Origin: Channa argus
Lineage: Eukaryota
NCBI RefSeq assembly: GCF_033026475.1
Contig: NC_090205.1
Coordinates: 6,037,544 to 6,101,543 of the forward strand
DNA length: 64,000 nucleotides
Direction: 5' to 3'
Part shown: positions 20,773-56,999 of the stretch, piece by piece
Layout of the letters: every line of letters begins with the position of its first letter
How positions within the stretch are numbered: the stretch's first letter is position 1
Notes under the pieces: generated by a model
Told to the model about the DNA's origin: nothing
What the model saw: only the letters and a program-made list of their open reading frames with translations
Databases searched by the model: none
Made by a program: the position numbers and the translations under genes

Positions 20773-22885
20773 ATTTACCAGTGTTACACTTTTTTCTCAC
20801 AGATCCACTGCTGAGATACTTCACATGACAGGTCATTCCACTTGTGACCTTTTTGAACTTTAATTTCTGCACAGTCTTCTCCATCTGTCGAATCTTTATC
20901 CTCATTATTGGGCTCCATCACATCCCAGTACCTAACCGGTCAATGAACAAAAAAACAATCCTGAATATGGACATAAAAAGACTCTTGATGGTCTCTATGC
21001 TGATAACTAAATGTTATGACAGCAGTGGTTCAGTCAGAGCCAACAGTACTGAAACAGACAGGAAGTGTGTCAGCAGTCATTCTAGCAGCTCTGAGAGTCT
21101 CCAGTCAGTGGTGTTCAGAGCAAAATCCTAACTTGAGCTTTTAGGTCTTATTTCCCTTTTATGCCTACTATGTTCTATTTAATCTCTTTTATCTGTTTGT
21201 CTCTTTTCACTCACGTGTTTCAGTTGTATTGGACCAAACACACATTATTTCCAGATGTATTTAGATTTAAACAAAGTGAAGCATATTTCTGTCTTACTTA
21301 AAAGTCAGTGTAGTTCCATCGATCCATCTCCAGGTCCCCTCTTCATCTCTGTCACTCAAACCAATCCAAGTTCCCATTCTGGTGAATGCAGAGAGAAATG
21401 TCTGTTCAATTGAAACAAAAGACAATCGCTGCAATTATATTTTAGTTGTAACCAGCAGGAGTGAGACACAAAGACACAGCACACACACATTCATATCCAC
21501 AAAAAAAGCTGAAACACTTCCATTCATGATACAGTGGATTCAGAAAGCAATCACATGCTCATATTTCTTCCTCATGTCCATATCATCCAAAAACAAAGAA
21601 TGATGAACATATTCTTTGTTTGGACACTCTGCACCTGTTCTTCAGCACTGTTAATGACCACCAGGTCTGCTCCTCTCTTTCTGCAGTCCTCTCTGCCTTT
21701 TGTCCATGAACCAGACTCAGTGGACAGGAGATAACAGGAGTAGCTGAACATCATCCATCCTGCAGGACAAGTTCTCTCTGCAACGTAAAACAATAGATAT
21801 TAGAAATGTATCAAGGCACAACTCCATCTACTGCCAGAGAAAGATGGTATGAAGTAAAACATGCAAACAGAGGAGTTTGAAGTGTCTTCACATCTTAACA
21901 TTTTAATGTGCTCACAGAATGTGAACGTGTCCTTAATCCTAAACATATAGTGAACAGTTCACAAGTCTAAATCCTTAAAAGATCAAATGTCCTGTCCCTC
22001 ACTGCCCACACTCACTGACTCTGACACTTGTTCAGTTCCTCTGCTGTTTTATTGAGTCTGGTATTCAGCTGGTCTCTCTCTTCAGTCAGTGAAGACACTT
22101 TGTTCTTAATGTCCTGGAGAAGCTCAGTCAGGTTGGTTTTGATGCTGGAGAGTTCTGCAGCTGCACGTTGTGCTGAGTTATCATCTGAAAGCACATGAAT
22201 TAATATAATTTAATACCACATACTATTTAGCCAGATCAGATTCTTTGCTATTTTTCCCCCAATCTTTATAATGAACTGATGCCCATAATTTAAGTTCCAT
22301 GTTCTAAAAATCTCATGTAAAAAAACACATTTGCATACAGGCATAATGCTAATCTAATATTAGAGAATAAGTGATGTTGTGAAGTTGCTGTTTGTCTTGT
22401 GCTGAACATCTACATCCACTTTTCCTGCTAAACTTTAGTCAAAACTACGAACTCTAAAAAATAATTAAATTTTTACATTTTAAAATGCCATAAAAGCTTT
22501 GCAAAACAAAAACATAATTAAGAAACCTAACAAGTTAGATTTGTAAAAGTATATGACAATACTTCTGAAACTCATAAAGTGACTCTGGTATTAACTTATA
22601 AAACACAGACTCACAGTGGACACCGAGGACGATGAGTCCAGCCAACAGGAAAACACTCAGCAGCCCCAGACAGAGACCAATAGTTTTATAAAGTCTCCTG
22701 TCGGAGCTCCTGGGACCTGAACAGAAAAAGACCAGTAAACACAGTCTTAGATCAGAAATAACATATGATTAAAACAGATTTAATCTCCACTCAGCAATTA
22801 ATTAAACATTCTTACTTGTCTGATTTGTTGAAGGACTTGAGTAAACAGACTTGTCATGTTCAACATTGACATATATTTCCTCCAT
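20773..22885 (-). CDS. Type II transmembrane C-type lectin receptor, gene A (apparently intact; CD209/CLEC4/CD23-like architecture)
   Basis: The gene has six exons on the - strand, whose products assemble in frame.
- Cytoplasmic exon, 22885-22816: MEEIYVNVEHDKSVYSSPSTNQT, donor GTAAGA.
- TM exon, about 22715-22613: ...YKTIGLCLGLLSVFLLAGLIVLGVH.
- Neck exon, about 22187-22016: coiled-coil DDNSAQRAAAELSSIKTNLTELLQDIKNKVSSLTEERDQLNTRLNKTAEELNKCQSQ.
- CTLD1, about 21772-21622: TCPAGWMMFSYSCYLLSTESGSWTKGREDCRKRGADLVVINSAEEQ.
- CTLD2, about 21423-21305: TFLSAFTRMGTWIGLSDRDEEGTWRWIDGTTLTF.
- CTLD3, about 20930-20773: KYWDVMEPNNEDKDSTDGEDCAEIKVQKGHKWNDLSCEVSQQWICEKKV, stop TAA.
A variant polyA signal ATTAAA and ATTTA elements lie about 120 nt downstream of the stop. 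Confidence 0.75.
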
Positions 22886-22899
22886 TGATCACAGGTTTG

Positions 22900-23300
22900 T
22901 TAACTGCCTCAGAGCTCTGGTCAGCTTTGCAGCACAGTACATGTAAATGATAAAGACACTTTGGTTTCAGATACTAAGAACCCTGAGCTTTAGAGGAAGT
23001 TTGTGTGGTTTTAATGGTCAGCAATAAGAAGTGTGCTCATTAGAAGACACACTAAATACATGTGTGATTAAGACAACCCAGCCACAAAAACACAACAGAC
23101 TTTCACTGTGTGTGTTGCTGCACTTGAGAGATTTCTGTTGAGTCTTTCTGTCTCTGCTGAATTTGAACTCTTGGGCAAAGAGAAGAGCGTGATTGTTCTC
23201 TGTTTGATCCATCTCTCTGCACTTATGTCCATAAACCTGTTTGTCTTCCAAATGAGCAGTGCAGATTTTAAACTTAATTAAATTAAATCAACTGTTTCTT
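22900..23300 (-). promoter_or_regulatory. Conserved 5' flanking block of the CLR genes (candidate promoter / 5' exon), copy upstream of gene A
   Basis: The block recurs immediately upstream (on the gene strand) of exon 1 in genes A and C, and in gene D on the upstream side of the TM/exon-1 deletion junction (35600-36100, 46990-47490). A diverged version recurs at 27060-27440 and 56970-57400. It contains a TATA-like CTTTATAGCTGTGG and a short conserved ORF (MFTIVFNSVQGDNPENLHCSDLEDKQVYGHKCREMDQ...). Confidence 0.35.
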
Positions 23301-23342
23301 TGAATGTCTCAATTGTTTTGTACATACGTAGACACAACTTAA

Positions 23343-54380: not shown

Positions 54381-56299
54381 GTTTATTATACTATTTCATT
54401 GTATTTTGTTCCTTAAATTCTTTTATACTTTTTATTTTTTATTTATATATATAATTTGGTTTTACTATTTTAATTGTTAAGCACTTCAGTCAGACTTTGC
54501 TGCTTTTAAAGTGCTTTATAAATAAAGTTGGCTCGACTGTGAGCAACATGCCAATTTTGACCCTGTTTCACTTTTTATTCTCTCTTTTGTATATACATTA
54601 CTCCTTCCATTGCTGTTTTAGGTTTGGTGATGATTATTAAACTTTAACTAATTTTCTAAACGTGGGACACCCCAGATATAATTGTAATGTTTTAATCTCG
54701 GGAATGCGCACACTAGAATATTCATTTAAGAAAAACAACACAAACTTTGACATTATGCTCAGCATCAACTAACTCAGCTAATGTCAGCTCGTGCTGTTTT
54801 GCTCTGAGAAACAAGATATTATCCTTTAGTGGGGCCCAGCTTTAGATGGTTGCCCCTCGCCTTTTCTCTTTACTCTTTTACTCCCTGTATAAATAAAAGT
54901 ATGTCTCAGTTTTGTTGACACACATAAACCAGGATATTGGGATGTAAACAAAGTGAAGGACTTACTTCAAAGTCGGTGGAGGTTCATCCATTTTCAGGTG
55001 CCCTCTTCATCTGTATCACTCAAACCAATCCATGCATCATCTGCAGTGAATCAAGAGAGTAATGTTTGTTTTGTATATGTATATAACTTTGTTTGTATAT
55101 GTCAAACTGTCTCTGAGCAAGACGCTGAACCCCCAACAGCTCATTCCCCTCCCCAGATGTGCAGTGCCAGTCCAAGCCGGGTAGAGACTGCGGAGGGTTT
55201 CTTCAGGAAGGGCATCTGGCGTAAAAACTGTGACTAATCAACATGTGGACAAAGTTTTCTCTGTAACATATTGTAAGACAGCAGACATAAGTAAAGACAG
55301 AGCTCCATCTCCTGCAGATGTGCTTGAGTGTTGAGAGTTAAAGACCAGTATCTTAAAATGTTAACATCAACATATCAACATGCACACAGAATGTCTCCAA
55401 AGCAGCCAGTCTTTGGAAACATTAGGTTTGCACACACACAAGCTTTTTTCGCCAGGCATCTATGATGCATCTTGTTCCATTTATGCTTCAGCCCACACTC
55501 ACTTTTTTGGGACAAACTCTGAAGCCTGTTCAGTTTTTCAGTTGTTTAAATGAGGCGGATGTTCAGTTGGTCTCTCTCCTCAGTCAGAGAAGACAGTCTG
55601 TCATTCAGCTTGTCCTTCTCCTCAGTCCGTGAAGAAACTTTATTCTTACAGTCTTGCAGAAGGTCAGTCAGGTTTGCTTTGATGGTGGAGAGTTTTTCAG
55701 CTGCACCATGTGCTGCTTTATGGTCTAAAAAAAGAGACATGTCTGTGAAACATAAAATACCACATGAATTCATGTACTGTGATGTTACTAAGAGAAGTCA
55801 AATTGTTTCCTACAATATTTTTTTTCAATGAACTGACCATAATTTAGGTTTAGGAATTAAATATCTTTATCACATTTTATTTTTACACCTACATTCATTC
55901 CTCATGAGGATGTTGATTATTCTTAGTAAAAGTCAGCTCTTCAACACAAGGACACTGAAAGTTCTCATTGGCATCTCTAAATTTTAACATCTAGGTTTCT
56001 GAGGTTCAAAATAGTTCATCTGTAGACATCTGTCACCTCCCTTAAGATAGAAGTGCAACCTGACACAGGATGTTTCTCATGTTCTAATTTGCAACAAATG
56101 ACAGTTTAACATTTTCTTATTCAGATTAGGAAGAAAAAAAAAGAACAACCACCTTTATTGTCATTGAGCACATATATGTATATATATGCACATCCATAAA
56201 TGTTTATGTTTGTACAATGACACGTAAACAGCAACAACTGCTGTAGTGACTTATGTGATAATCTGTGTTTACACCTGTATATATAGTGAAGTTTATACA

Positions 56300-56450
56300 T
56301 TTATATATGGTCCAAGCCCGGTAGAAATTGGGGAGGGTTGCATCAGGAAGGGCATCCGGCATAAAAACTGTGCCAAGTCAACATGCGGACAATGATCCGC
56401 TGTGGTGACCCTGAACTCACGGGATAAGCCGAAAGGACAAAAAACAAACA
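56300..56450 (+). mobile_element. Short RTE-LINE 3'-end fragment (5'-truncated copy / SINE-like) inserted in copy F only
   Basis: It reads ...gggcatccggcataaaaactgtgccaagtcaacatgcggacaatgatccgctgtggtgaccctgaactcacgggataagccgaaaggac, which corresponds to the C-terminal codons ...HMIRCGD plus the tail of the RTE at 43146-46068. It is absent from the paralogous site at about 26540. Confidence 0.65.
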
Positions 56451-56999
56451 AAAAAAACACTTTAATAAGCAATTTTAAAGTTGGATTTTTAATACAAATA
56501 ATATAAACATTTTATAGTTAATGTTTAGTTTTTACAATAATTTAAAAACTAAATGTTAAACTCTTTACATTGGTCCATATATTACTATAATAATAAAACT
56601 GAAATAACAAAACACATTAGGTGCAAACAAAAATAACACACAATTCAAAGAAAGATAATAAAAATTTAACTTGGATAAAAACAGACTCATGGTGGACAAG
56701 GAGACCGATGAGTCCAGTCAACAGGAAAACACTCAGCAGCCCCAGACAGAGACCAACTCTATAAAACCCCTCTCTGAGCTCCTGGGACCTAAGCAGAGAA
56801 AACAATCCACTTAATCCAGTCCTCTATCAGAAATAACAGATGAAAGAGCAGATTTATTCCCACTGAGTCTGTCAGCGTCTGATTGAACATTCTTACCTGT
56901 CTGATTTGTTGAAGGTCTTGAGTGAACAGACTTGTCATGTTCAACATTGACATATATTTTGTCCATGATCATAAATTTGTCAGGTCAGTAAGTGCAAAT

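Follow-up and report, generated by a model that had tools for sequence, protein, structure and literature searches.

Mammalian receptors of the DC-SIGN type are type II membrane proteins with a helical neck and a C-type lectin-like domain, or CTLD, whose EPN and WND motifs support calcium-dependent binding of mannose-type glycans; they belong to a multigene cluster with species-specific copy number. The mammalian natural killer (NK) gene complex and Dectin-2 clusters (Ly49, NKG2, CLEC4) consist of tandem type II lectin-like genes with rapid gain and loss, many pseudogenes and exchange between paralogs, and the group V receptors of the NK complex have lost the calcium/sugar site and bind protein ligands. 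Here we describe nine head-to-tail copies of a six-exon gene for a type II C-type lectin receptor, all on the minus strand, in a 36-kb segment of the genome of the northern snakehead, Channa argus. The segment lies within a stretch of 64,000 nucleotides (contig NC_090205.1, positions 6,037,544 to 6,101,543), referred to below as the window; positions are counted from its first letter.

The closest described set of genes comes from Fugu. DC-SIGN-F1 to F8 were placed there in a subgroup of CTLD group II that is DC-SIGN/Mincle/Dectin-2-like and specific to teleosts (Zelensky and Gready, 2004; PMC514892). In that survey, four of the genes form a tandem cluster on one scaffold, tandem expansion is limited to the DC-SIGN-like subgroup and the mannose receptor, and the fish subgroup is described as lacking identifiable tetrapod orthologues (PMC514892). 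A second fish receptor, trMincle, is automatically annotated as CD209-like; its EPN and WND motifs coordinate calcium in the crystal structure, its short tail carries no signalling motifs, and it requires FcR-gamma for surface expression (PMC11929736). Seven exons have been reported for human and mouse DC-SIGN (PMC4691118). A literature search returned no paper on a Channa lectin cluster.

The window very probably contains a segment of the CD209-like group II cluster of C. argus, with nine gene copies, two of them intact and seven decayed. Some 20 more C. argus proteins named “CD209 antigen-like” fall on the same chromosome (28.36 Mb), and the homologs in Channa striata carry the run of locus tags Q5P01_013914-013953; the window is therefore a piece of a much larger cluster. 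The name “CD209-like” is an automatic annotation.

Nine co-oriented copies, two of them intact

An earlier note on this DNA had proposed a co-oriented array of at least nine lectin paralogs undergoing birth-and-death evolution. Queries for a tblastn search of the window were the assembled products of the two intact copies (genes A and E) and the full set of 184 retrieved homologs. Matches are confined to the minus strand at 20,769-56,966, limits that coincide with the bounds proposed in the note, and they resolve into nine copies; this total presumes that the fragments at 38-41 kb represent two copies (F1 and F2). The best E-value per exon is ~1e-5 in the weakest relics and improves to 1e-29 in the intact genes, so that chance is excluded as their source. 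No CTLD exon was found by tblastn at 1-20.7 kb or 57-64 kb. The DNA of the window is AT-rich and contains retrotransposon open reading frames (ORFs).

Along the direction of transcription the copies are ordered H, E, G, F2, F1, D, C, B, A, all but A and E being decayed. Exon 1, which encodes the cytoplasmic tail, is present seven times (at 22,885, 27,050, 28,988, 35,483, ~40,871, 50,434 and 56,966), the copy at ~40,871 being a relic without ATG. Transmembrane (TM) exons lie at 22.7, 26.8, 28.8 (truncated), 35.3, 50.2 and 56.7 kb, and all seven cytoplasmic exons and six TM exons that had been noted are thus found in place. The proposed division into two subfamilies by the last exon also stands: the A/D type, with WND, reads ...KWNDLSCEVSQQWICEKKV, relic G being a variant of it, and the E/H type, with WKD, reads EPNNGG...VWKDLPC...WIC.

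Gene A had been called intact and gene E possibly intact. Both assemble into full ORFs with GT/AG at every junction:

20784-22885, minus strand: gene A, intact, 243 amino acids (aa); Pfam Lectin_C, E-value 4.4e-25
22885-22816, minus strand: gene A, cytoplasmic tail exon
22716-22615, minus strand: gene A, TM exon
22184-22020, minus strand: gene A, neck exon
21777-21635, 21401-21298 and 20931-20784, minus strand: gene A, three CTLD exons (EPN...WND; stop included)
48289-50434, minus strand: gene E, intact ORF, 234 aa, EPN...WKD; Pfam Lectin_C, E-value 2.3e-23
50434-50365, 50276-50187, 49986-49822, 49522-49380, 49121-49018 and 48421-48289, minus strand: gene E, six exons

The splicing of both six-exon structures is predicted, and the junctions agree with the RefSeq models of gene A and of the annotated paralog P0025.

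The best database match of gene A is RefSeq XP_067372126.1 (“CD209 antigen-like protein C, partial”, C. argus), which is 100% identical to it over exons 2-6. The first ten residues of this model, LDSSVSLSTI, are a frameshifted reading of the TM exon of relic B (26801-26772); the model therefore splices the TM exon of B, at a GTCTGT donor, onto exon 2 of gene A, and leaves the intact exon 1 of A (22885-22816) unused. The B-to-A junction reflects read-through transcription or else an artefact of prediction, and the model is partial because the B-to-A reading frame has upstream stops. The full-length gene A protein has no exact match in a collection of 15 billion proteins. Its tail of 34 residues begins M-E-E-I-Y-V-N-V; a 23-residue hydrophobic TM segment, TIGLCLGLLSVFLLAGLIVLGVH, follows DRRLYK in agreement with the positive-inside rule and contains no charged residue. 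Calcium site 2 is complete (EPN...GEDC...WND).

The gene E protein likewise has no exact match in the same collection, and no annotated protein is identical to it. The closest, P0025, is 82% identical overall. Exon 1 is 96% and exons 2-4 are 90-94% identical to P0025; by sequence, gene E is a mosaic in which exons 1-4 are P0025-like and exons 5-6 are not. It departs from the calcium/sugar-ligand pattern of CTLD group II in having EPN...WKD and not WND. The function of gene E is doubtful because of this change at a calcium ligand and because no annotated protein matches it.

Family identity and proposed function

Both assembled ORFs match the Pfam family Lectin_C (PF00059) far beyond its cut-off of 22.6 bits, with 88.9 bits for gene A and 83.4 bits for gene E, each covering profile positions 3-107 of 107, so that the profile check proposed in the earlier note came out clearly. 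Both products contain the long-form CTLD cysteines and the WIGL motif (CPAGW...SCY...DC...WIGL...EDC...C...WIC). The architecture is that of a type II receptor: a tail, a single signal-anchor TM segment, a helical neck with N-x-T sequons and one C-terminal CTLD. In an AlphaFold2 model of the gene A product (pLDDT, the predicted local distance difference test score, 83.7), one continuous helix spans residues 16-99 of P0001, comprising TM segment and neck, and is followed by the CTLD.

The best Foldseek matches to this model are SIGN-R1, DC-SIGN and DC-SIGNR (41-44% identity, TM-score ~0.8), followed by ASGR1, SRCL, Mincle and Takifugu Mincle (9kpl). Group II structures make up nearly all of the top 50; the remainder are a few other CTLDs (aggrecan and a type II antifreeze protein), and group V is absent. 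In a sequence search of the Protein Data Bank (PDB), the single-CTLD chains ranking first are trMincle (9kpl), DC-SIGNR, Mincle and DC-SIGN. Among the 184 homologs the sugar-ligand motifs are QPD/WND in 102 and EPN/WND in 20. Since gene A keeps EPN, the Glu and WND, and since its closest sequence and fold matches are group II, we place the lectins, on sequence and modelled fold, in CTLD group II, in the teleost DC-SIGN-like (DC-SIGN/CD209-CLEC4-like) subgroup. The comparison with NK-complex or CLEC-type loci drawn in the earlier note therefore holds as an analogy of rapid copy turnover, not as membership of group V.

Because the calcium-site residues EPN, Glu and WND are kept, gene A would be expected to bind glycans of the mannose, fucose or N-acetylglucosamine (GlcNAc) type in a calcium-dependent manner, on myeloid cells. 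The helical neck probably oligomerises the receptor. Signalling or internalisation would go through the phosphorylatable, near-invariant tyrosine motif of the tail, M-E-E-I-Y-x-N-V, whose Y and N are at least 90% conserved (69 homologs); a start of the form M..Y.N is present in 129 of the 184. YxN is the consensus of the Grb2 SH2 domain, and the acidic residues ahead of the tyrosine recall a hemi-immunoreceptor tyrosine-based activation motif (hemITAM). Assignment to the FcR-gamma-coupled Mincle/Dectin-2 type was considered and rejected, given the 34-residue tail with its conserved Y and N and the TM segment without a charged residue.

Decay of the other seven copies

The remaining copies were mapped as unprocessed pseudogenes:

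26775-27050, minus strand: relic B; exon 1 at 27050-26981 with TAA at codon 10; TM exon at 26872-26775; no downstream exons
28770-28988, minus strand: relic C; exon 1 at 28988-28917 with a 2-nt deletion leading to TGA; truncated TM exon at 28813-28770
34658-35483, minus strand: relic D; exon 1 at 35483-35414; TM exon at 35314-35213; last CTLD exon at 34804-34658
38088-38616, minus strand: relic F1; 3' half of CTLD exon 1 at 38616-38542 (Cys to Ser); CTLD exon 2 at 38191-38088; last CTLD exon deleted
39871-40871, minus strand: relic F2; exon 1 without ATG at ~40871-40815; partial neck at 40399-40310; CTLD exon 1 at 39990-39871
42058-47229, minus strand: relic G (A-type); upstream flank at 47229-47000; exon 1 and TM exon deleted; neck at 46638-46486, 12 nt shorter
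46242-46100, 42716-42613 and 42205-42058, minus strand: relic G, CTLD exons; donor of exon 5 (42716-42613) changed from GT to GA; EPS in the last exon
53254-56966, minus strand: relic H; exon 1 at 56966-56897; TM exon at 56788-56691 with the frameshift of B and the donor changed from GT to AT
55724-55518, minus strand: relic H, neck, 42 nt longer, with TAA inside
55065-54966 and 53383-53254, minus strand: relic H, CTLD exon 2 with stops and indels, and last exon with WKD and the stop codon lost; CTLD exon 1 missing

Exon 1 and the TM exon of relic D are 96-97% identical to those of gene A. A deletion of 1.28 kb, from the neck to CTLD exon 2, has fused intron 2 of this relic to its last exon; the acceptor is gone, a GGTA microhomology lies at the junction, and the binding loop has QPD in place of EPN. 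CTLD exon 2 of relic F1 differs from that of gene E at 2 nt over 34 codons, and the CTLD exon 1 of relic F2 is shortened and contains a stop. In both B and H the TM exon measures 98 nt instead of 102 nt and is frameshifted. Every lesion listed in the earlier note was located, although its view that each dead copy bears a lesion of its own needs amending, as B and H have this frameshift in common. The Cys to Ser change, which it counted among the lesions, is present in F1 but also in the annotated paralog P0021.

The 42-nt insertion in the neck of relic H amounts to one extra 14-residue repeat (SSRTEEKDKLNDRL beside SSLTEERDQLNIRL), and the annotated paralogs P0075, P0028 and P0010 have many 14-residue neck repeats; neck length thus varies in 14-residue units within this lectin family.

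Duplication and sequence exchange

Self-BLAST of the window reveals paralogous blocks of 70-95% identity. The block at 34.6-38.2 kb (D and F1) parallels that at 42.0-49.1 kb (G and the 3' part of E), and the block at 26.5-28.0 kb (B) parallels that at 56.5-58.0 kb (H) at 93%. These parallels suggest an alternating arrangement of E-type and A-type genes. The common frameshift and the 93% identical flanks of B and H indicate that this copy was duplicated when already dead. Divergence between paralogs in the array extends from 2% to 30%.

Copies A and G are a mosaic of unequal divergence. In introns 3 and 4 they differ at 9 of 454 sites (2.0%), as against 102 of 663 (15.4%) in introns 2 and 5 (Fisher p=1.5e-15); the tract of low divergence is ~0.9 kb long, and the last exons are 22% divergent. 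This tract points to gene conversion or recombination. Because the introns were homogenised along with the exons, the mosaic reflects an exchange of sequence and not purifying selection. A weaker tract is found between A and D, where the stretch from exon 1 to exon 2 is 2.6% divergent and its flanks 8.1% (p=0.001).

A further sign of exchange may lie in the E-type lineage. Both C. striata copies of this last exon (E-type and H-type, at 12826-12980 and 16700-16850 of locus L002) encode WND, with AAT as the codon for its Asn. In C. argus the same codon is AAG (Lys) both in gene E (48289-48421) and in the dead copy H (53254-53383). The lineages of E and H predate the split between C. argus and C. 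striata, and the AAG common to both must therefore stem from a parallel substitution or a short gene-conversion tract.

The triplet that governs sugar specificity differs among the closely related A-type last exons, being EPN in A (20784-20931), QPD in D (34658-34804) and EPS in G (42058-42205), and the differences between the A and D last exons fall mostly within the first 20 codons. As a sign of exchange, the triplet differences are suggestive only. Positive selection was considered by way of the ratio of nonsynonymous to synonymous substitution rates (dN/dS) for single exons and is not claimed: the values are 0.3-0.6 overall (0.34 for the last exon of E versus H) and 1.18 on 20 binding-loop codons of A and D, which are too few sites.

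Birth-and-death evolution, as the earlier note had it, is supported by nine co-oriented copies with only two intact ORFs, by duplicates of unequal age and by insertions of transposable elements, with conversion tracts superimposed. Little or no concerted evolution, a feature of the birth-and-death model, does not describe this locus, given the A-G mosaic and the AAG codon common to E and H. Unequal crossing-over of an alternating E-type/A-type arrangement is the most likely way in which the array grew. Copies were then lost through microhomology-mediated deletions, insertions of long interspersed nuclear elements (LINEs) and Tc1 elements, frameshifts, stops and splice-site mutations, and gene conversion or recombination swapped segments between live and dead copies. 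The A-G mosaic is a clean, small example of gene conversion beside birth-and-death evolution in a fish pattern-recognition receptor cluster.

Comparison with Channa striata

Three C. striata loci, taken from CM065177.1 at ~21.74-21.91 Mb, were compared with the window. Locus L002 has the same order as the window: an E-type gene, a relic of TM and last exon, a LINE, and an intact A-type gene that has an exon 1 of its own. Collinearity also links relic F2 to 35,327-36,566 of locus L003, directly upstream of gene P0003. The E-type/A-type order and the presence of relic F2 in both species imply that the arrangement and at least one relic predate the species split. Introns of gene A are 28% divergent from those of the C. 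striata A-type gene, compared with 2-15% among A, D and G, so that the A-type copies must have multiplied or been homogenised within the C. argus lineage. In a neighbour-joining tree of CTLDs, calculated without support values, one clade of 21 members consists of Channa sequences only. The lineage-specific expansion proposed in the earlier note fits the Channa-only clade and the closeness of A, D and G to each other, but part of the array, with the E-type/A-type order and F2, is shared with C. striata.

The deposited C. striata gene models include chimeras. Model P0019 (14.8 kb, L002 10001-24818) combines relic exons with parts of an intact lectin gene, and model P0042 (26 kb, L003 10001-36406) likewise combines relic exons with intact genes. 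At L002 22410-24815 the intact A-type gene includes an exon 1 of its own, which the deposited model leaves unused. These chimeric models mirror the C. argus RefSeq model of gene A.

Weighing the alternatives

Several observations weigh against a simple account of two functional group II receptors among dead copies. Gene A is found in RefSeq only as a 5'-partial model that begins in the TM exon of relic B, and the use of its own exon 1 is predicted and unproven. Gene E has Lys for the calcium-coordinating Asn of WND, and the resulting WKD motif occurs in 0 of the 184 homologs; no annotated protein matches this gene, which could be a pseudogene of recent origin. The motif of the tail conforms neither to a canonical immunoreceptor tyrosine-based inhibitory motif (ITIM) nor to a canonical hemITAM, and ligand specificity, oligomerisation and signalling are all deduced from motifs only. 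Gene conversion can mimic a lineage-specific clade in a neighbour-joining tree without support values. Assembly errors might in principle explain small frameshifts, but that of B and H is present twice, and the large lesions are of a structural nature. That last concern can be extended to the whole array, whose copies and lesions would then be artefacts of collapsed or duplicated haplotypes and of indel errors in repeats. Tandem immune-gene arrays are indeed hard to assemble and sequencing errors can give small frameshifts, but the copies are 70-95% identical and not near-identical, among their lesions are deletions of kilobase scale, the 3.2-kb insertion of a LINE and multiple substitutions as well as the frameshift common to B and H, and the independent C. 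striata assembly contains a similar mix of intact genes and fragments. We therefore reject this explanation as highly improbable. We also reject, as very unlikely indeed, a cluster of the NK-complex type (CTLD group V, KLR/CD94-like) that binds protein ligands and not glycans. The six-exon layout, the type II topology and the tandem birth-and-death behaviour do match mammalian NK-complex genes, and cichlid cKLR genes of a related type were once assigned to group V, a point taken up in the Fugu survey (PMC514892). Against this, EPN, Glu and WND are kept in gene A, 122 of the 184 homologs have QPD/WND or EPN/WND, and group II supplies every best match by sequence and by fold, with group V accounting for 0 of the top 50 folds; in the same survey, no group V genes are found in Fugu and cKLR groups with the fish DC-SIGN-like set (PMC514892).

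The relics might also be alive and supply a few long transcription units with alternative 5' exons or neck cassettes; promoters or exons of the upstream copies B, H, F2 and D would then splice into the intact genes to give variant receptors or regulatory transcripts. XP_067372126.1 fits this idea in starting in the TM exon of relic B (26801-26772) and continuing in exon 2 of gene A, as do C. striata P0019, which links an upstream exon 1 and TM exon to an A-type neck and CTLD over 14.8 kb, the 26-kb chimera P0042, and P0121, with two neck exons in tandem. However, the frame across the B-to-A junction has upstream stops and yields no functional N-terminus, the relics carry stops, frameshifts and lost splice sites (no acceptor in D, donor GA in G, donor AT in H), and chimeric models are a common artefact of gene prediction in tandem arrays; we consider living relics unlikely. 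About equally doubtful is a bolder proposal, in which the relics would form a sequence reservoir from which gene conversion supplies the live genes, chimeric transcripts into the intact genes might be driven by relic exons upstream in both snakeheads, and the array would act as a cassette system that diversifies glycan specificity over evolutionary time; the WKD of gene E would then mark a calcium-site-altered receptor with a new ligand mode and not a dying gene. Its grounds are the 0.9-kb A-G tract, the EPN/QPD/EPS differences among close copies and the Lys codon common to E and H. A segment of a CD209-like group II cluster, with two intact and seven decayed copies, remains our preferred reading.

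Transposable elements and surroundings

No cellular genes besides the lectin copies were recognised in the window, which otherwise contains transposons, and no Rfam family reached its gathering score there. The following elements were mapped:

23833-25878, plus strand: LINE between gene A and relic B, reverse transcriptase ORF (RVT_1, 1.9e-38); element at ~23.3-26.4 kb
25971-26114: TTG-rich tandem array (periods 3, 34 and 56) at the 3' end of this LINE
42905-46075, plus strand: LINE of 3.2 kb in intron 4 of relic G; A-G homology breaks at 42904/46076; Exo_endo_phos in the ORF at 43262-44047; 3' (GAA)n tail
36735-37807, plus strand: Tc1/Sleeping-Beauty-like remnant (HTH_SB, 8.8e-16)
47744-48190: related Tc1 remnant (self-similarity of 37405-37807 and 47766-48188 at 91%)
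~52410-52930: candidate related Tc1 remnant, from reading of ORF translations only
59347-63742, minus strand: pol region of a Ty3/gypsy-type long terminal repeat (LTR) retrotransposon (RVT_1, RT_RNaseH, rve) at the right border of the array

The target-site duplication of the LINE in relic G is ambiguous. At 2159-2422 lies an inverted partial copy of the part of the A-B LINE tail that adjoins the TTG-rich array. The ORFs at 14806-16018 on the minus strand appear integrase-like by eye; 14806-15285 has no Pfam match.

Comparison with known lectin clusters

The main value of this locus lies in corrected annotation and in the comparative immunology of an aquaculture species. The analysis provides a full-length ORF of 243 aa for a gene listed in RefSeq as 5'-partial only, flags gene E, with its altered calcium site, as a second intact ORF that is missing from the annotated proteins, and maps seven unprocessed pseudogenes of a kind that can mislead gene prediction, as the chimeric models in C. 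argus and C. striata illustrate. In other respects the locus is unremarkable, its kind having been known in fish since 2004, and it leaves the current understanding of such loci unchanged.

Its nearest counterparts, Fugu DC-SIGN-F1 to F8, as presented in the part of the 2004 survey drawn on here, are likewise teleost type II receptors with a single CTLD, have mostly kept their calcium/sugar ligands, are tandem-expanded and automatically annotated as CD209-like, and have no clear one-to-one mammalian orthologue. Compared with that description, the snakehead array is denser, with nine copies in 36 kb, consists mostly of pseudogenes set among LINE and Tc1 elements, and has conversion tracts and two alternating gene types.

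With mammalian DC-SIGN/CD209, DC-SIGNR and mouse SIGN-R1, which gave the best structural matches to the gene A CTLD, the snakehead genes have in common the type II topology, the helical neck, EPN/WND with its presumed glycan binding, and a multigene cluster with species-specific copy number. The necks differ: in the fish gene the neck is one exon of 55 residues, with added 14-residue repeats in some paralogs, whereas the DC-SIGN-type neck is built of 23-residue repeats. The fish tail has M-E-E-I-Y-x-N-V where DC-SIGN has di-leucine and tri-acidic internalisation motifs, and the fish gene has six exons as against seven in human and mouse DC-SIGN (PMC4691118).

By sequence, the solved single-CTLD structure closest to gene A is trMincle of Takifugu rubripes (PDB 9kpl/9ks7; E=1.5e-31; 44% identity). 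It differs from gene A, in which the tail is 34 residues long and includes a conserved tyrosine motif and the TM segment is uncharged; for these reasons gene A is not expected to be an FcR-gamma-coupled receptor of the Mincle type. Finally, the snakehead array behaves in evolution as the mammalian NK-complex and Dectin-2 clusters do, while its genes, unlike the group V receptors of the NK complex, belong to group II.

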